64,000 nt of DNA from positions 32,001 to 96,000 of the forward strand of contig CAZUFC010000004.1 of assembly GCA_964619725.1 (NCBI GenBank). The letters are read 5' to 3'. Below the pieces are notes generated by a model, which saw only the letters and a program-made list of their open reading frames with translations, did no database searches and was not told the origin of the DNA. The position numbers were made by a program, and so were the translations under genes. Shown piece by piece: positions 22,088-31,365 of this stretch (positions are counted from its first letter, which is position 1; each line of letters starts with the position of its first letter). This DNA comes from an uncultured bacterium. GTDB taxonomy: Bacteria > CSSED10-310 > CAZUFC01.

Positions 22088-24025
22088 TCATTCTTTTTCA
22101 AGGTAAGAATAACCATTGAGGCCATCCTGGTAAATTTTGAGAAATTTGGCTGATTCTCTCAACGAGAGTTTTTTGGATTTAACGCCGGCTTCGACTGCAT
22201 TCCTTAATTTGTTGATGAGTGTTTCGACGTCGTACTGAACATATCTGAGCAGAGCTCCGACGGTATCGCCTGCGATAAATTTGTCAATGATATAATTCCC
22301 GTCTTTTAAGACCGATACATGTACCGTATTTGTGTCTCCGAAGAGGTTATGGAGGTCGCCGAGTATTTCCTGGTAAGCGCCGATAAGGAAGATGCCTAAA
22401 TGATATCCTCTGTCGTCGGGATAATGCAGGCTCAATGTGTCCTTGACTCCGCGCAGGTCAATGAATTGCTCGATTTTTCCATCCGAATCGCATGTGATGT
22501 CTACTAATGTGGTCTTGCAATCGGGTTGCTCATCCAAACGGCTTATAGGCATGATGGGAAATAACTGGTCGATAGCCCAATGATCCGGTAATGATTGGAA
22601 TACGCTGAAATTACAGATATAAGTATCTGCCAGAAAACGTTCCAATCCTGATAATTCTTCAGGGATATAATCCAGCGCCTGAACGATTTTCAAAATTTTC
22701 ACGCAAATTTGCCAGAACAGGTCCTCAGCTATTGCCCGTTCCTCAATATTCAAAAGCCCCAGATTAAATCTGGCCAACGCATCGTCTTTGTAATGCATCG
22801 CATCATGGAACGACTCCTGGTAATTTTTTATTGTAATATTTTTTAGTACATCCTTCATGTCGATTAATAAGTCGGGGGGATTGTCCGGAAAATGCAAATT
22901 GCTGAATCGTCCGGAATAACTGGAAACGTCTGTTACGTCGACCAGCAGAACAGAATGGTGCGCAACCAGAGCTCTGCCGCTTTCCGAGATAATATGGGGA
23001 TGAGGAACAGAGCGTCTTTCGCATTCTTCGCAGACGGACCACACTATGTCTGCGGCATACTCCTGCATTGAATAATTCGCGCTTGATGCGAAATTGGTTT
23101 TGCTGCCGTCATAATCAATGGCCAAACCTCCTCCGACGTCAAAATAATTCAGCGGCGCTCCGAGACGATATAATTCGGAGAAAATCCGTACGGCTTCCCC
23201 CATCGCTTCCTTTATGCTTCTTATGGCAGTAATTTGCGAACCCAGATGAAAGTGCAACAGCTTAAAGATATGCAACATGTCCCTTTCGCGCAAGATTTGA
23301 ACGATTTGCAGTATTTCAACAGTCGTTAATCCGAATTTTGAAAATTCACCTCCTGATCCTTCCCATTTTCCCGCACCTCGTGAAGAAAGCTTGCATCTTA
23401 CCCCAATTGTGGGCTCCACATTCAACTTTTTCGCACAGGATAAAATCAAATCCATTTCATTGAGTTTTTCCACGACGAGTATAATATTTTTGCCGATTTT
23501 CGATGCCAGAAGCGCTGTTTCTATGTATTCCTGATCTTTGTAGCCATTGCAGATGATAAGGGCTTTTTCGTTTTCCATAAGGGCGACGGCTATAAGAAGT
23601 TCAGCTTTGCTGCCCGATTCCAGGCCGAAGTTATATTCCTTCCCGAAATCCAGTATGTCTTCCACAACTTGCCGGCTCTGGTTGACCTTAATCGGATAAA
23701 CCCCCATGTATTCACCCTTGTAAGAAGCTTCATCCATTGATTTTCTGAAAGATTGGTAAAGCTCTTTGACTCTTTGTTTCAATATGTCCGTAAAACGAAG
23801 GAGCACCGGAGTATTGATGTCCCGTTGCATTAATTCTTGCACGAGGAAAGAAAGATCGAGCTCGTATTGCATGTTTTTGTAAGGTCTTACGACAGCATGC
23901 CCCTGCTCATTGATGGAAAAGAATCCCTGCCCCCAATCTGTGACTCTGTAAAAATCTTTTGAATCCTGAACGGTCCATTTTTTTTTGAGTTTCTTTTCTT
24001 TCTTCTTGATATGAGCCTTTTTCAT
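22088..24025 (-). CDS. speA: Biosynthetic arginine decarboxylase
   Basis: YPIKVNQ (PLP lysine), GLESGSK, ICNGYKD, HFHLGSQ, DVGGGL, SESGRA, TCDSDG, GAYQEILGDLHNLFG. AGGAGG RBS. Confidence 0.95.
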   Translation of the reverse strand: MKKAHIKKKEKKLKKKWTVQDSKDFYRVTDWGQGFFSINEQGHAVVRPYKNMQYELDLSFLVQELMQRDINTPVLLRFTDILKQRVKELYQSFRKSMDEASYKGEYMGVYPIKVNQSRQVVEDILDFGKEYNFGLESGSKAELLIAVALMENEKALIICNGYKDQEYIETALLASKIGKNIILVVEKLNEMDLILSCAKKLNVEPTIGVRCKLSSRGAGKWEGSGGEFSKFGLTTVEILQIVQILRERDMLHIFKLLHFHLGSQITAIRSIKEAMGEAVRIFSELYRLGAPLNYFDVGGGLAIDYDGSKTNFASSANYSMQEYAADIVWSVCEECERRSVPHPHIISESGRALVAHHSVLLVDVTDVSSYSGRFSNLHFPDNPPDLLIDMKDVLKNITIKNYQESFHDAMHYKDDALARFNLGLLNIEERAIAEDLFWQICVKILKIVQALDYIPEELSGLERFLADTYICNFSVFQSLPDHWAIDQLFPIMPISRLDEQPDCKTTLVDITCDSDGKIEQFIDLRGVKDTLSLHYPDDRGYHLGIFLIGAYQEILGDLHNLFGDTNTVHVSVLKDGNYIIDKFIAGDTVGALLRYVQYDVETLINKLRNAVEAGVKSKKLSLRESAKFLKIYQDGLNGYSYLEKE

Positions 24026-24401
24026 TTCGTCGACCTCCTTGTCACTCATATCTGAGGATTGGGAAATGAGAGGACGATATTAACATAATAACGAGGATTT
24101 CCAATTAAAAAACTGAAATTTCCCAGTGAAGTATTCGTAACAGGAATCAGGAAAGTTTCATTTCGCCTGATGAGGATCAGTTGCCTGGAGAATTCGAATA
24201 TGTTTTTTGAAAAATGGACTCCTTTTGATGTAATTGATAGATCAGCCGCAGGTTCTATAATCAGGTCGACTCCGCAAAACAGAATTCCTGTGAAAAAAAT
24301 CTTTTCATTTGAAGACAGAAAGATATCTTTTTGCTGCGAGCCTTCCTGATTACAGCCACGCTGCAGTCCATTATTTCATACCGCCGGCATTGGTTTTCCG
24401 A

Positions 24402-24800
24402 CTATTTTTTTCCCTTTCGGAACACGAATCCATAAGTTTTATTTCCGGCGACTTCCCGAATCACGTCGGTTTCAGCTATCAGCTTATCTCCTGTTTTGAC
24501 GTTTGCGTCTCTAATCTGTCCCAATGCTTTTATGCCATTGTCGAATTCCACAATACCGAAGGTTAAAGATTTGGTTTCAAAGCCTTCGGGAAGAGCGAAA
24601 ACCTGAGAATATGCCAGTAATTTGCATTTTCCTTTCAGAGGCACCTTGATGAAATCATCATAAATAACTTCTGAGGGGTCCCGTCGGGTTCTGCATTTTT
24701 CGCACACCATTGGTGCGGGGTAGTAGAGTTTTTCGCATTTCGGGCATTTATAGGCATAAACATTTTTGTCTACAGCATAGAGGTCTTGAATTTCGTACAT
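24402..24800 (-). CDS. DUF35 (Zn-ribbon plus OB-fold, acyl-CoA binding) protein
   Basis: KCPKC...YYP...VCEKC, then OB-fold pattern GIVEFDNG.KALGQ. Lies directly downstream of the thiolase. Confidence 0.85.
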   Translation of the reverse strand: MYEIQDLYAVDKNVYAYKCPKCEKLYYPAPMVCEKCRTRRDPSEVIYDDFIKVPLKGKCKLLAYSQVFALPEGFETKSLTFGIVEFDNGIKALGQIRDANVKTGDKLIAETDVIREVAGNKTYGFVFRKGKK

Positions 24801-24818
24801 CTCGATTCTCCTCTGTTG

Positions 24819-25994
24819 TTATTTAGCTAATATCGTCGTCAGTACGTTGTTTCCGAATCCTCCGAAATTGACGGCAAGTCCATACTTCGGATTCTTGACC
24901 TGTCTTCCTTTTTCAGCTTCGCCTCTCAACTGTTTTACAAGTTCGTGTATTTGAGAGACGCCGGTAGCGCCCACTGGATGTCCTTTTGCTTTTAAGCCGC
25001 CGGAAGCGTTGACGGGAATCTTGCCGTTAACTTCCAAATCGCCGCGTTCGATGGCGGCTTTGGCTTTGCCCTTCGCGAAAAAACCGACCTCTTCACTGAT
25101 GGCTGCTTCCAGAATAATAAAGGCGTCATGAAGTTCTGCCAGCGAGATGTCTTTTGGTCCTATTCCAGCCATTTTATATGCCTTTTCAGCAGCCGTCCGG
25201 ACGGCTTTTAAATCCAGAGGGTCTTTCCTGTTATGGACGCAATGAGTATCGGTTGCCTGTCCGATTCCTGCTACACGGATCGGTTTCTTTTTAAATCGGT
25301 CCGCTACGTCCATGCCGCACATGATGACTGATGCTGAGCCGTCGGAAACAGGACATATACCGTAAAGCCTTAACGGGTCCGCCATGATCGGATTGGCGGA
25401 TTCTTTATGCGGATTATTCAATATGCCGTCCAACGATGCTTGTTGCTCCACATGGCTGAAAGGATTAAGATCAGCGTTCCTGTGTGCTTTTTCTCCTAAT
25501 ATGGCTAAATGCTTCTCCTTCAGACCATATTTTTCCATGTACATTCTTGTGAACATCCCTGCGAATCCCGAAAGAGTTATGCCGTACGGATATTCAACTT
25601 CCGGATGAGTCAACGTGGAAATAAAATCAGTGCTTCGCCAGCCGGTCGTTTCGCGCATGCGTTCGCCGCCCGTAACCATCACGATGTCCGCCATGCCTGA
25701 CGCGATAGCCATGTATCCGCATTTGATCGCAGAAGCGCCCGATGCGGGACCATTCTCAACGGTTTCCGCCATAGCGGGTTCAAGAAATATCCGGCTCACC
25801 AGAGATGATGCGATGCCTGTCTGATGATTAAGAAACGCCGAGCCCATGTTTGCAACGAATACCTGATCGATTCCCTTGTCGATTCCTGCATCTTCCATTG
25901 CCTCCAACGAAGACCAGGCCAATATGTCCACAAGATCATAATCCAATCTGCCGAATTTTATATGACCGATTCCTACTATTCCAACTTCTCTCAT
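24819..25994 (-). CDS. SCP2/archaeal-type thiolase-fold protein lacking the catalytic cysteine
   Basis: PVSDG, ELHDAF, VNASGGLKAKGHPVGATG and NFGG motifs; ENGPASG replaces ENACASG. Confidence 0.9.
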   Translation of the reverse strand: MREVGIVGIGHIKFGRLDYDLVDILAWSSLEAMEDAGIDKGIDQVFVANMGSAFLNHQTGIASSLVSRIFLEPAMAETVENGPASGASAIKCGYMAIASGMADIVMVTGGERMRETTGWRSTDFISTLTHPEVEYPYGITLSGFAGMFTRMYMEKYGLKEKHLAILGEKAHRNADLNPFSHVEQQASLDGILNNPHKESANPIMADPLRLYGICPVSDGSASVIMCGMDVADRFKKKPIRVAGIGQATDTHCVHNRKDPLDLKAVRTAAEKAYKMAGIGPKDISLAELHDAFIILEAAISEEVGFFAKGKAKAAIERGDLEVNGKIPVNASGGLKAKGHPVGATGVSQIHELVKQLRGEAEKGRQVKNPKYGLAVNFGGFGNNVLTTILAK

Positions 25995-26665
25995 CGTTTA
26001 AACTCCGGAATTTGCGGATACTCATCAGGCGGAATGAGATTATCCGCGGTTTTAAGTAAATCAGCCGGAACCGGACGAGTCCCGGATAACAGTCTTGATC
26101 TGGCTTTATCGAACAGTTCTTTCGTCAGAACGTAAGAAGGCACGCCCCCCAGTTCATGCTGAAATTCCATACGAGGTTCAAGTTGATACTCTATCATCCA
26201 TCTTTTGAATCCGATAAAACTTTCCGCAACGATATATACTTCTTCCTGGTTGAGAAAATCCATGTGATATTCCATTTTGGCGGCAAACATCATCGCTCCG
26301 CAACGCAACCCTCTCCGTATCGTCATTGTGTGATAACTCATTCCCCGAGCCTCATCGATCATTCTCCCGTTTACTATGCTCGCAATAACTCCATCAATGG
26401 ACCCGACCAAACAATAAGGGTCCCTCACCCGATACAGCAACTGCCCTAAAAGCTCGCCGTACATCCTGGTTGCGACAATGTCATAAAAGTCCCTTCTTAC
26501 TTTCATTAAAGGACTGACTGTTTCCAATAAAGCGGGTATGTCTTCGCTTGTCGCTTGACGGATTACCAATTTTTCGCCGGATGCCAATGTAATGAATTTA
26601 GGCGGATACGGCGTCATCTTCCTTGACGGCGGTCTCAGTTTTAATTCTAAATCCTCAATAAACAT
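25991..26665 (-). CDS. GNAT-fold acetyltransferase-like protein
   Basis: LVIRQAT.EDIPAL N-terminal GNAT pattern and RRGLRCG CoA-binding-like motif. GGAGG RBS precedes ATG 26665; ATGA overlap with the thiolase. Confidence 0.7.
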   Translation of the reverse strand: MFIEDLELKLRPPSRKMTPYPPKFITLASGEKLVIRQATSEDIPALLETVSPLMKVRRDFYDIVATRMYGELLGQLLYRVRDPYCLVGSIDGVIASIVNGRMIDEARGMSYHTMTIRRGLRCGAMMFAAKMEYHMDFLNQEEVYIVAESFIGFKRWMIEYQLEPRMEFQHELGGVPSYVLTKELFDKARSRLLSGTRPVPADLLKTADNLIPPDEYPQIPEFKR

Positions 26666-26772
26666 GAATTGTAAACCTCCCTTCCATGAAGCCGTTAACA
26701 ATAGCATGCCGAAACTAACTACGCAAGGCATAAGCTCAAATATGCTAATATTTTTTCTCCCTCTTTTCAATC

Positions 26773-26801
26773 TTGACATACGAACACTTTGATACTATAC
26801 T
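26773..26801 (+). promoter_or_regulatory. Near-consensus sigma70 promoter of pckG
   Basis: TTGACA-N17-TATACT. Confidence 0.75.
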
Positions 26802-29136: not shown

Positions 29137-29523
29137 ATGAAAGAATTATTTCAAACAGCTGACTGGAAATCGGAAAAACACGCGCCTGTCATTACGGTAC
29201 GCGAATCCGCTGAAAAAGGGGAAATCCTGGATATAGAATTAAGCGTCGGCAAAGAGATACCGCATCCCAATACCACTGAACATCACATTTCGTGGATCGA
29301 ACTTTATTTCCATCCCGAAGGTGAGAAATTCCCTTATGCCCTGGGCAAATTTGAGTTTTCATGTCACGGCGCTTCAGTCCAGGGGCCTGACTCGAGTACT
29401 GTATATACTCATCCCAAAGTCGTTTGCTCTATGAAAACGGAAAAGTCCGGAAGCATCCACGCAATGGCTTATTGCAACATCCATGGGCTGTGGAGCAGTG
29501 TTGCGGAATTGAAGGTTAAATAA
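29137..29523 (+). CDS. Superoxide reductase (class II/neelaredoxin type)
   Basis: EKHAP, HPNTTEHHISWI and YCNIHGLW iron ligands. AGGAGG RBS. Confidence 0.93.
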   Translation: MKELFQTADWKSEKHAPVITVRESAEKGEILDIELSVGKEIPHPNTTEHHISWIELYFHPEGEKFPYALGKFEFSCHGASVQGPDSSTVYTHPKVVCSMKTEKSGSIHAMAYCNIHGLWSSVAELKVK

Positions 29524-29636
29524 ATTACGTCGTCGAACTCCTGTGAATTCGATAAAGCCGTTCGAACAAACGGTTTCAACGAATTGAACGATTCAGGAGG
29601 AAATGTAGAGTTCATTTTTAAAGGAGGAAATTGATC

Positions 29637-30149
29637 GTGCTTAAAGAAAATATGGAAAAAGCATTGAATGAACAGATTAACGCTGAATTGTTTTCAGCGT
29701 ACCTTTATCTTTCGATGTCAGCTTATTTTGAATCAATTGATCTGGCGGGATTCGGAAACTGGATGAAACTTCAGGCTCAGGAAGAAGCGGAACATGCTAT
29801 GAAAATATACGATTTCGTCAATCAAAGAGGTGGCCGAGTCATCCTTACGGCGATAGAAGCCCCACAGAGTGAATGGAAGTCCCCTTTGGACGCTTTCGAG
29901 GATGTATACAGTCACGAGCAGAAAGTGACGAAAATGATTCACGATCTCGTAGATTTGGCGCTGCAAGAGAAAGATCACGCCTCCAATAATTTTTTACAAT
30001 GGTTCGTATCAGAACAGGTTGAAGAAGAAGACTCAGCTCAGACAGTCCTTCAGAAGCTCAAACTCATCGGAGATAAAGGGCATGGTCTTTTTATGATCGA
30101 CAGAGAATTGGGAAACAGGAAGGCAGAGTCTGGCTCTGAAGAGGAATAG
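29637..30149 (+). CDS. ftnA: Non-heme ferritin
   Basis: [47 protein letters not shown]. Start GTG 29637 or TTG 29631. Confidence 0.92.
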
Positions 30150-30318
30150 GTATTCCGGATTTTTAGCTGACGGTTTTCTTTTATAGTTCGGAATCGCATG
30201 AGTTCCGAATTTCTGTAAGTTTAGTGAATCGACGTGTGAATTATTGTATCAGTTAAGAGGGAACGAAGGATATGTTTGTTTTGGATGACGTCTCAATTGC
30301 TGAAAAGGAGTTTTTATA

Positions 30319-30783
30319 ATGAAAGAATTCAATTCGACCGAAGAAATTTTGGATTTTGCGGTACAGGAGGAAGAAAAAGCGTTTCAGTTTTACAAGAGTC
30401 TGGCTGAGAAAACTGAAAAACCCTGGATGAGGGAAGTTTTTATGGAATTTGCTCGTGAAGAGGCGTCTCACAAAGAAAAATTGCTCCAGGTTAAAGAAGG
30501 GAAGCAGGTACTGGTTGATGTTAAGGGAAAAGTAATGGATTTAAAAATAGCCGATTATCTTGTAGAAATGGAACCGAACCCGGAAATGGATTACCAGCAA
30601 GCCTTAGTCGTTGCCATGAAAAAAGAAAAAGCTGCATTTAAATTGTATTCGGACCTGGCGGGAAGAATAGATGATCCGGAACTCAAGTCAGTTTTCCTGT
30701 CATTGGCTCAGGAAGAGGCAAAACATAAATTGAAATTTGAAATTGAATATGATGATAATTTCCTTACAGAAAAAAAATGGTAG
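30319..30783 (+). CDS. Rubrerythrin-family ferritin-like diiron protein (no rubredoxin domain)
   Basis: Two ExxH modules (AREEASH, AQEEAKH) and E...FY helices. Confidence 0.88.
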   Translation: MKEFNSTEEILDFAVQEEEKAFQFYKSLAEKTEKPWMREVFMEFAREEASHKEKLLQVKEGKQVLVDVKGKVMDLKIADYLVEMEPNPEMDYQQALVVAMKKEKAAFKLYSDLAGRIDDPELKSVFLSLAQEEAKHKLKFEIEYDDNFLTEKKW

Positions 30784-30876
30784 GCCTGAGCAGAGCCTTT
30801 CGCGGGATACCATTGATCATGATATCGGAACTTAAATTAAATCGTTCCACATCATTTATTGCAAAGGAGCTCCATC

Positions 30877-31365
30877 ATGGTCGAAGATAAAAAAGCGGAG
30901 ACGGGTGATAAGGCCCCTGATTTCGTATTGCAAAACGCGGAAGAACAGGAAATACGCTTGAGCGATTTGGTCGGAAAATGGATTACGCTTTATTTTTATC
31001 CTAAAGACAATACGAGCGGGTGCACGTTGGAAGCCGTAAATTTTACCAATGCTTTGGATGAATTTAAGAAACTTGGCGGCATAATCATCGGCATCAGTCC
31101 GGATTCCTGTCAGAGTCACAGGAATTTTAAAGCGAAACATGACTTAAAAGTCGTGCTGTTGAGCGATCCTGATAAATCCATAATAAAGCGTTATGGGGTT
31201 TGGGCATTGAAGAAAATGTACGGTAAAGAATATTACGGCGTCGAAAGAAGCACCTTTCTTATTGATCCCGACGGAAAAATAGCTCATGCCTGGCGAAAAG
31301 TAAAAGTTAAAGGGCATGTGGAAGAAGTGAAAGAAAAATTAAGGGAGTTGGTCGGCAAGGCTTAA
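30877..31365 (+). CDS. bcp: Peroxiredoxin Q / Bcp
   Basis: LYFYPKDNTSGCTLEA, GISPDS, ERSTFLID. AAGGAG RBS. Confidence 0.93.
   Translation: MVEDKKAETGDKAPDFVLQNAEEQEIRLSDLVGKWITLYFYPKDNTSGCTLEAVNFTNALDEFKKLGGIIIGISPDSCQSHRNFKAKHDLKVVLLSDPDKSIIKRYGVWALKKMYGKEYYGVERSTFLIDPDGKIAHAWRKVKVKGHVEEVKEKLRELVGKA

Follow-up and report, generated by a model that had tools for sequence, protein, structure and literature searches.

We analysed a window of 64,000 nucleotides from an uncultured bacterium of the GTDB lineage CSSED10-310 (assembly GCA_964619725.1, contig CAZUFC010000004.1, positions 32,001 to 96,000), and all positions given here count from its first letter. On the minus strand, the window carries three consecutive genes, here called the trio: a GNAT-like gene for a protein of 224 amino acids (aa) (25991-26665), a thiolase-like gene for a protein of 391 aa (24819-25994) and a DUF35 gene for a protein of 132 aa (24402-24800). 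The first two open reading frames (ORFs) overlap by 4 bases (25991-25994), and 18 bases (24801-24818) separate the thiolase-like gene from the DUF35 gene. These ORF coordinates confirmed the layout described in a first-pass annotation, which had been made from this DNA without database searches. The longest ORF of the GNAT-like gene spans 25991-26779 (minus strand). Its start was assigned to 26665 and not to 26779, because the listed homologues are 213-240 aa long and align from Met39 of the longest ORF, and because a Shine-Dalgarno-like stretch read from the sequence, GGAAGGGAGG, lies just upstream of the ATG at 26665 (~26676-26685, minus strand).

The active-site motifs of the thiolase-like protein were read directly. 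The minus-strand sequence from 25766 to 25731, ETVENGPASGAS, gives E-T-V-E-N-G-P-A-S-G-A-S, in which the CCC codon at 25748-25746 encodes Pro83, the residue that stands where thiolases have their nucleophilic cysteine. This is an ordinary proline codon and no stop or selenocysteine artefact. In a phmmer comparison with solved thiolases, Pro83 aligned with the nucleophilic cysteine of 6esq_A (VEAACASG) and 7yvy_A (IEAACASG). The codons for HDAF (25119-25130, minus strand, residues 289-292) place an alanine where the acid/base cysteine of HDCF is expected, and this alanine aligned with the HDCF cysteine of 6esq_A. The GHP codons (24975-24983, minus strand, residues 338-340) retain the oxyanion-hole histidine. 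Both thiolase cysteines are therefore gone from ENGPASG and HDAF, and both histidines, in HDAF and GHP, are kept, in full agreement with the motifs and the CCC codon reported in the first-pass annotation. The HDAF motif by itself would not be diagnostic, because 7yvy_A, the nearest solved relative (E 7.5e-74), also reads HDAF yet keeps its nucleophilic cysteine; the HDCF cysteine is thus lost as well in proteins deposited as acetyl-CoA acetyltransferase.

The overall fold of this protein is that of a thiolase, with both the N-terminal and the C-terminal thiolase domains recognized by Pfam (Thiolase_C_1 PF22691, E 1e-41; Thiolase_N PF00108, E 2.3e-17; PF02803, E 3.5e-8). Neither the nucleophilic cysteine (xACASG) nor the acid/base cysteine (HDCF) of thiolases was found in it, and no NCBIfam thiolase model matched it at its cut-off, the best being NF004720 (375 bits versus 420) and AcCoTHIOL_METTL (313 versus 600). 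Its closest solved relatives are archaeal-type thiolases, 7yvy_A and also 6esq_A, which aligned over residues 1-389 with E 1.9e-66. In the family alignment His289 and His339, the two histidines of the hole that stabilises the enolate, were invariant. Cys214, within CPVSDG, was conserved in at least 90% of the sequences and was weighed as a substitute nucleophile; it may instead be a core residue, because a cysteine of canonical thiolases sits one residue before this site (HCSP, both in 6esq_A and in the canonical paralogue of the same genome). A 7-residue insertion specific to the subfamily, HKESANP (residues 196-202; 25389-25409, minus strand), lies in the thiolase loop region and corresponds to a gap in the own-genome canonical paralogue, 7yvy_A and 6esq_A.

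The DUF35 protein matched zf-ChsH2 (PF12172) at E 1.2e-5 and, weakly, the NCBIfam model BbsA (E 3.1e-5); no Pfam OB-fold family matched it at E <= 0.01. It carries a rubredoxin-like four-cysteine zinc ribbon (C19, C22, C33 and C36), of which Cys22, Cys33 and Cys36 were invariant and Cys19 nearly so in the DUF35 alignment. The protein is encoded by a separate ORF, of 112-163 aa in the 18 listed loci.

The conservation of the trio was examined in a scan of one genome per species, which yielded 554 loci with a relative of the GNAT-like protein; the best 80 of the 554 were analysed. They were found in records of Bacillota, Spirochaetota, Thermotogae, Eisenbacteria, Thermoanaerobaculaceae, Bipolaricaulota, Verrucomicrobia, Sumerlaeota, Neomarinimicrobiota and Coriobacteriaceae. 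The GNAT-like gene was directly followed by the thiolase-like gene in 80/80 loci, so that the linkage noted in the first-pass annotation is not sporadic, and the DUF35 gene came next in 78, the two exceptions (L048 and L057) stopping at contig ends. The trio is a fixed unit. Identity between phyla was 57-79% for the GNAT-like protein and 53-78% for the thiolase-like protein.

The altered active site was equally widespread. Among the 80 loci, the nucleophile loop read ENGPASG in 76 and SNGPASG in 3, with one partial match (xNGPASG in 79/80); HDAF was present in 76 and HDPF in 2, with 2 not covered; GHP was present in 77, with 3 not covered. A second motif set, the 120 best cluster representatives of the thiolase-like protein, gave xNGPASG in 119/120, HDAF in 101, HDPF in 19 and KGHP in all 120. 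The cysteine loss, which the earlier annotation had left open to be a private one, is thus conserved in close homologues and appears to be ancestral to the subfamily. The same genome also encodes a canonical operon on another contig (C53, L002:1085-3702), with HMG-CoA synthase (348 aa), thiolase (387 aa, VESACASG, HDCF) and DUF35 (134 aa) genes; this thiolase is 37% identical to the thiolase-like protein of the trio. Given this operon, the trio is best taken as a paralogous, differently built system and not as a decayed copy.

Thiolases use the backbone NH at the nucleophile position for the tetrahedral intermediate, and ketosynthases with a replaced cysteine decarboxylate malonyl groups. Because both histidines are kept, both cysteines are lost and Pro83 removes the thiol together with the backbone NH, the sequence argues for enolate chemistry without an acyl-enzyme in the thiolase-fold subunit, malonyl decarboxylation being the obvious candidate. 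The non-covalent chemistry suggested in the first-pass annotation is, given the family-wide cysteine loss, a reasonable proposal.

The GNAT-like protein was studied by sequence and by predicted structure. No Pfam or NCBIfam family was found for it (Pfam E <= 0.01), and when the threshold was relaxed to E <= 10, just 1 of 17 family members touched Acetyltransf_1, at E 0.1. The AlphaFold2 model, built from a 17-row alignment, had a pLDDT of 88.7 and a pTM of 0.88. Its top Foldseek matches were GNAT acetyltransferases (PA3270, PatZ, Rv0998, SpeG and RimJ; E ~2e-7), with 248 matches at E <= 1e-3. VIA, which is independent of Foldseek, aligned 162 residues with 1yre_A (Z 13.1, root-mean-square deviation 3.0) and returned 195 chains at Z >= 8, the 50 listed being almost all GNAT acetyltransferases. 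By these models the first gene product has a GNAT fold. The label given to it in the first-pass annotation was therefore supported by fold (AlphaFold2, Foldseek and VIA) but not by sequence profiles.

The GNAT-like protein belongs to an isolated, tight family. When 1.84 billion representatives (50% identity) were searched with a profile, only 206 matched at E <= 1e-3, many of them fragments, and no bridge to named GNAT families was found among these 206. A word-indexed search returned 1583 clusters, the best 120 of which were 60-79% identical to the window protein and included proteins of Clostridium autoethanogenum, C. ragsdalei, C. magnum and Moorella. In a protein atlas, the clusters of this protein were automatically named 'N-acetyltransferase domain-containing' or 'N-acetylglutamate synthase', and PF00583 was present on 19-27% of the members in lower-ranked clusters; both serve as leads only. 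The beta4-alpha3 loop reads R117-R118-G119-L120-R121-C122-G123-A124, with G119, L120, R121, G123 and A124 invariant. The loop and helix at this place in GNAT proteins bind the pyrophosphate of coenzyme A (CoA), and the motif A pyrophosphate loop has the pattern Q/R-x-x-G-x-G/A, which is one residue shorter than the loop seen here. The stretch S110-Y111-H112-T113 on beta4 is invariant. GNAT-fold malonyl-CoA decarboxylases (MCD and the CurA loading GNAT) use a catalytic pair of histidine and Ser/Thr in the GNAT tunnel, and the invariant stretch recalls this catalytic pair, a likeness that is suggestive only. Because of the GNAT fold, acyl transfer between nitrogen and the CoA sulfur is suggested for this subunit.

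A complex of the three proteins was modelled with one copy of each, each chain having its own alignment, and the GNAT-like chain was scored as the partner. The complex score was 0.78 (three runs, 0.76-0.79), and the best of three controls scored 0.00. The runs shared at least 95% of their contacts, and the partner pLDDT was at least 84. The score mark is reached by 116/157 solved complexes and 2/215 mismatched pairs, figures that are only roughly applicable here given the custom alignments and the three chains. Confident contacts were formed by residues 117, 119, 182-202 and 210-211 of the thiolase-like chain (insertion residues 196 and 198-202 included), residues 75-77 of DUF35, and residues 25-30, 118-128, 151-161 and 190-196 of the GNAT-like chain. 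The GNAT residues 118-128, which comprise the beta4-alpha3 loop and helix, were modelled against the thiolase loop region 182-202. These predictions support binding of the GNAT-like subunit to the thiolase-like/DUF35 pair, with the subfamily-specific insertion as its putative docking surface, and favour the three-part complex with a GNAT as third subunit that was proposed in the first-pass annotation. The thiolase-DUF35 part of the model resembles solved complexes. No solved complex in which a GNAT joins a thiolase/DUF35 pair is known to us, and it therefore seems unlikely that the GNAT-like chain passed from model memory. Since the CoA-loop region 118-128 lies at the predicted interface, it is possible that the subunits share one site for CoA, which is the case in the archaeal thiolase/HMG-CoA synthase/DUF35 complex.

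We then compared the genes around the trio. All ORFs of the 80 loci were clustered, recurrent clusters were named by Pfam and NCBIfam on one representative each, and companions were counted within 5 kb of the trio. Homologues of AllF, AllG or AllH were present in 46/80 loci; flavin adenine dinucleotide (FAD), 2Fe-2S or molybdenum (Mo) subunits of a xanthine-dehydrogenase-family enzyme in 33/80; and a cyclase-family (PF04199) protein likewise in 33/80. With carbamate kinase and the NCS2 nucleobase permease also counted, 61/80 loci had at least one companion. AllF, AllG and AllH are described as the subunits of the E. coli oxamate carbamoyltransferase (PMC11326118, accessible part). The typical order in Clostridium is AllH, AllF, AllG, cyclase, GNAT-like, thiolase-like, DUF35, (permease), and the FAD, FeS and Mo subunits, and regulators of the PucR, CdaR or GntR type recur near the trio. 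The cluster permease scored higher as a uracil permease (326.6 bits, cut-off 477) than as a xanthine permease (199.5), both below the equivalog cut-offs, and a CodA-like gene adjoins the trio in two loci (L038 and L009). Of the loci with no companion, one from Verrucomicrobia (L079) has a divergent carbon-nitrogen hydrolase gene beside the trio, and one from Coriobacteriaceae (L081) has a PucR regulator and, directly downstream, a pair of DUF485 and sodium:solute symporter genes. Some Spirochaetota and Clostridiaceae genomes have their AllG match within open frames as long as ~1000-1050 aa (L072:926-4060; G177, G209, G244 and G253), which suggests AllF-AllG fusions. An NfnAB-like pair (DHOD-B-type FeS/NAD plus GltD/PreT-like subunits) lies upstream of the trio at L008:2581-4807, and a glutamate dehydrogenase gene is near the trio in L008, L063, L076 and L082.

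In the genome of the window, the pathway companions are present but dispersed over other contigs. AllH-AllF-AllG lie on contig C156. C2 holds the only cyclase-family gene, which shares 75-79% identity with the cyclases next to the trio in Spirochaetota and Eisenbacteria loci. On C159 lies the best match to the Mo enzyme linked to the trio, together with its FAD and FeS subunits; its Mo subunit is 36-41% identical to the trio-linked one, well ahead of other paralogues in the same search. Behind this Mo operon are a cytosine-deaminase-like amidohydrolase gene (NF005748, 400 bits, cut-off 438) and a uridine phosphorylase gene (TIGR01718, 294.5 bits, above the cut-off of 280.3), and an adenosine deaminase gene lies upstream of it.

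The co-occurrence of these genes was also followed in samples of genomes. In the phylum sample, the GNAT-like gene was present in 4/14 genomes, and the same 4 carried AllG and the cyclase orthologue; the other 10, several of which are only 60-87% complete, had none of the three. In 2 of the 4 positive genomes, one ten-gene cluster unites the trio with AllH-AllF-AllG, the cyclase and the subunits of the Mo enzyme. One same-phylum relative has a match to the cyclase orthologue with one in-frame TAG (G003:C61:13069-13848), which could be a sequencing error, a pseudogene or recoding. A class-level Clostridia sample, with the GNAT-like gene in 1/150 genomes (the centre genome itself), was too sparse, and a family-level sample was used instead. 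Among Clostridiaceae, the GNAT-like gene was found in 5/118 scored genomes, with AllG 2-5 kb away in all 5, and AllG was found in 17/120 genomes; therefore, the trio implies an AllFGH-type system, and the reverse does not hold. Four genomes from four phyla, reached via the loci, all carried AllG, in 3 of them near the trio. This is a consistent pattern and no statistical proof, as relatives are not independent.

These results make it probable that the complex acts in a nucleobase pathway. That the trio is one hetero-oligomeric enzyme forming the terminal module of an as yet undescribed anaerobic nucleobase route, with uracil or cytosine as the likeliest starting compound, is in our view evenly poised. 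Such a route would begin with hydroxylation of uracil to barbiturate by the xanthine-dehydrogenase-family Mo enzyme, after which the cyclase-family metal hydrolase would open the barbiturate ring to ureidomalonate. The chemistry of barbiturate and ureidomalonate is that of the aerobic oxidative pyrimidine pathway. The AllFGH-type carbamoyltransferase would then convert ureidomalonate and phosphate to carbamoyl phosphate and malonamate; carbamate kinase would obtain adenosine triphosphate (ATP) from the carbamoyl phosphate, and the trio would dispose of the malonamate. Ureidomalonate is the CH2 (one-carbon) homologue of oxalurate, which is a proven AllFGH substrate (PMC11326118, accessible part).

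Several observations favour a pyrimidine. The clusters hold just two enzymes before the carbamoyltransferase (the Mo hydroxylase and one ring hydrolase) and the trio after it, and uracil fits because two enzymes before and one system after the carbamoyltransferase match its arithmetic. A pyrimidine is further favoured because uridine phosphorylase and cytosine-deaminase-like genes lie behind the own-genome Mo enzyme, because CodA-like genes adjoin the trio, and because the permease scores as a uracil permease above a xanthine permease. The carbon-nitrogen hydrolase and the monocarboxylate-type symporter beside two trios without companions would also suit a small carboxy-amide as the direct substrate of the trio.

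The exact chemistry is offered tentatively as malonamate + CoA -> acetyl-CoA + CO2 + NH3, in which substrate, dependence on CoA and sequence of steps are all inferred. In this scheme, the GNAT-fold subunit would shift the malonyl group off the amide nitrogen and onto CoA, an uphill step, and the thiolase-fold subunit would grip the carbonyl between His289 and His339 and decarboxylate the group to an acetyl enolate. Decarboxylation within the complex would pull the uphill amide-to-thioester step, with acetyl-CoA, CO2 and NH3 as products. In the archaeal thiolase/HMG-CoA synthase/DUF35 complex, a favourable second reaction is described as pulling an unfavourable first one by means of a CoA-binding site that is fused (PMC12960953, accessible part), and the same pulling logic is proposed, by analogy, for the trio. 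In its widest form, in which the trio is an energy-conserving amide-to-thioester machine completing an ATP-yielding, oxygen-free 'oxidative' pyrimidine pathway widespread in anaerobes, the proposal is speculative.

A number of points weigh against this pyrimidine scheme. The substrate and the activity rest on inference, and we know of no citable precedent for amide-to-thioester transfer. CoA binding by either subunit is assumed from the fold, and motif A of the GNAT-fold subunit is atypical (RRGLRCGA) and lies at the interface in the complex model, the score of which is the model's own confidence. Like the window, 19/80 loci lack any pathway companion within 5 kb; 4 of these carry only a glutamate dehydrogenase gene, and several are short contigs. 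Few independent lineages stand behind the co-occurrence counts (within the phylum, 3 genera). The matches to cytosine deaminase and uracil permease are under the curated cut-offs. PucR-type regulators, known from purine catabolism, are present in 8 loci, and XdhA models give the Mo subunit its highest scores, none of which reaches a cut-off.

The last two points also bear on a rival in which the complex and the kind of pathway are the same and the compound broken down is a purine or some other ring with nitrogen. Xanthine, for example, would be opened to 4-ureido-5-imidazolecarboxylate, an AllFGH-like enzyme would decarbamoylate it, and the trio would decarboxylate or otherwise convert the resulting beta-carboxy amine. 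A PucR-family regulator is found again in L081, and the adenosine deaminase gene upstream of the own-genome Mo operon could be read in the same direction. However, the XdhA scores of the Mo subunit are far under the cut-offs (506 bits versus 780), the own-genome Mo operon has a uridine phosphorylase gene past its equivalog cut-off together with the cytosine-deaminase-like gene, and the permease prefers the uracil model over the xanthine model. The classical clostridial purine route needs further enzymes, namely an aminoimidazole deaminase, an imidazolonase and formimino-transfer, and these were not found in the ten-gene clusters. We consider a purine or other ring unlikely. A different objection concerns the catalyst, since the thiolase-like and DUF35 proteins could be a scaffold (a pseudoenzyme) with the GNAT-fold subunit as the sole catalyst, for instance as an N-acyltransferase on an amine intermediate. 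The absence of both thiolase cysteines would suit such a role, and there is a parallel in MucABC/PhlACB, whose HMG-CoA synthase (HMGS)-like subunit lost its catalytic tetrad and whose complex formation is discussed as a possible evolutionary vestige (PMC12960953, accessible part). At its former active site a pure scaffold should have drifted, whereas the motifs are invariant across phyla (NGPASG in 119/120 representatives, HD[AP]F and KGHP in 120/120) in a protein that is 53-78% identical between phyla, which makes the scaffold reading improbable.

The first-pass annotation had proposed aldol-type or non-covalent acyl-CoA chemistry, with the Ltp2-DUF35 retro-aldolase as a parallel and pckG as a possible link to central carbon metabolism; the rival that corresponds to it is a retro-aldolase resembling Ltp2 or Sal, or another enzyme of aldol type acting on acyl-CoA. 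A thiolase fold without cysteine and with a DUF35 partner is indeed shared with Ltp2-ChsH2 and Sal-Shy (PMC12329534, accessible part), and pckG adjoins the trio divergently in the window. The catalytic residues, however, are reported as Tyr294 of YDHF plus Tyr344 in TcLtp2, and Tyr302 plus Cys304 of YDCY in CtSal (PMC12329534, accessible part), and in the trio family the tyrosine of YDHF/YDCY is replaced by the histidine of the invariant HDAF, so that the analogy failed at the catalytic residue. The DUF35 protein is also free-standing and not the C-terminal domain of a hydratase, and neither a hydratase nor an acyl-CoA ligase was found among the 24 gene clusters recurring in at least 4 of the 80 loci. 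In tblastn searches with the window phosphoenolpyruvate carboxykinase (PEPCK) and arginine decarboxylase, pckG and speA were found in 0/80 related loci, and both were rejected as functional partners; the conserved context is nucleobase/ureide catabolism, and the link to central carbon metabolism was not sustained. An aldol-type enzyme tied to pckG is thus very unlikely. An ordinary acetyl-CoA acetyltransferase would match the source names of the thiolase-like homologues, 'acetyl-CoA (C-)acetyltransferase', which in public databases go together with 'hypothetical protein' as a name in the family, and it would match the archaeal-type thiolases that are the nearest solved relatives. Family-wide, however, the nucleophilic cysteine is proline and the acid/base cysteine is alanine or proline, no NCBIfam thiolase model reaches its cut-off, and the genome already has its canonical HMG-CoA synthase/thiolase/DUF35 operon on C53. 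A true thiolase was ruled out by the active-site residues, and this reading is scarcely credible.

The trio was compared with the known systems of similar build. With the archaeal thiolase/HMG-CoA synthase/DUF35 complex it shares an archaeal-type thiolase fold, an adjacent free-standing DUF35 and a third subunit encoded just upstream. It differs in that the third subunit has a predicted GNAT fold and not that of HMG-CoA synthase/KAS-III, in the replacement of the nucleophilic cysteine by proline and of HDCF by HDAF, in the 7-residue insertion 196-202, and in a context of nucleobase catabolism instead of mevalonate. PhlACB and MucABC likewise combine a thiolase fold, DUF35 and a third subunit in an assembly repurposed from thiolysis (PhlC match, E 8.8e-24). 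They are described as having lost the HDxF motif and the HMGS tetrad and as using a nucleophilic cysteine (Cys88 in PhlC and Cys87 in MucB, acetylated in structures) (PMC12960953, accessible part). Their third subunit is HMGS/KAS-III-like, whereas the trio lacks the cysteine, keeps HDxF as HDAF and has a GNAT-fold partner.

Ltp2-ChsH2 and Sal-Shy resemble the trio in having a thiolase fold without thiolase chemistry and a dependence on DUF35 (lipid-transfer protein 6ok1_A match, E 5.9e-21). Their catalytic residues are Tyr/Tyr or Tyr/Cys in the available description, in contrast to His/Ala (HDAF) in the trio; a MaoC-type hydratase carries their DUF35 as one of its domains, a GNAT partner is missing, and their context is steroid degradation. 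The benzoylsuccinyl-CoA thiolase BbsAB also joins a thiolase fold and DUF35 in anaerobes (BbsB-type 7pxp_C match, E 3.7e-41), but the trio scores far below the equivalog cut-offs (156 versus 750 and 24 versus 250). BbsB is a true thiolase with its cysteines, and BbsAB has no third subunit. With the E. coli AllFGH pathway, the trio loci share carbamate kinase and the AllF/AllG/AllH homologues, which are the most frequent neighbours of the trio. The E. coli oxalurate branch stops at carbamoyl phosphate and oxamate, no later oxamate enzyme being named in the accessible part of PMC11326118, whereas at the trio loci a dedicated three-protein enzyme follows the carbamoyltransferase. No enterobacterial source name was present among the best 120 of the 1583 GNAT-like clusters. 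No paper describing the trio was found in the full-text literature, a search that most subscription journals lie outside. The architecture of thiolase fold, DUF35 and third subunit is known, and the combination of a GNAT-fold partner, the Cys-to-Pro change and a nucleobase-catabolic context appears to be new.

Other features of the window and of its genome were also recorded. The gene speA, for a biosynthetic-type arginine decarboxylase with three Pfam domains, lies at 22088-24049 on the same strand as the trio, 352 bases downstream of the DUF35 gene. Scans for promoters and terminators around the operon stayed at the level of shuffled sequence (6 promoters versus 5.6 expected; 5 terminators versus 3.3). 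On the plus strand of the window, at 29137-31365, a run of ORFs resembles an oxidative-stress set (superoxide-reductase-, ferritin-, rubrerythrin- and peroxiredoxin-like), as judged by eye from the translations. Elsewhere in the genome, contig C22 (L096:7874-16690) carries genes for XdhC, an FAD subunit, a MobA-like protein, carbamate kinase, two pyridoxal phosphate (PLP) enzymes and an ornithine/aspartate-carbamoyltransferase-like protein; this cluster is similar to one part of the reductive uric acid pathway, that with YgeW, YgeX and carbamate kinase (PMC12507026, accessible part).

The family is large and strongly conserved, with relatives in at least 554 species-level genomes and 1583 protein clusters, and its database label 'acetyl-CoA acetyltransferase' is excluded by the active-site residues. 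This window adds a genome whose pathway genes lie dispersed, while relatives of the same phylum keep them clustered, the link to uridine phosphorylase and cytosine deaminase via the Mo operon, and the predicted docking of the GNAT-like subunit on the insertion. If the proposed role is true, the trio would supply the final step that is still missing when pyrimidines (or related nitrogen rings) are broken down without oxygen, with ATP gained via carbamoyl phosphate. It would also extend the thiolase/DUF35 scaffold family by a member that lacks the cysteine and has a GNAT partner, and provide a new case of an unfavourable reaction driven inside a channelling complex, and metabolic reconstructions of acetogens and of many uncultured anaerobes would be corrected.

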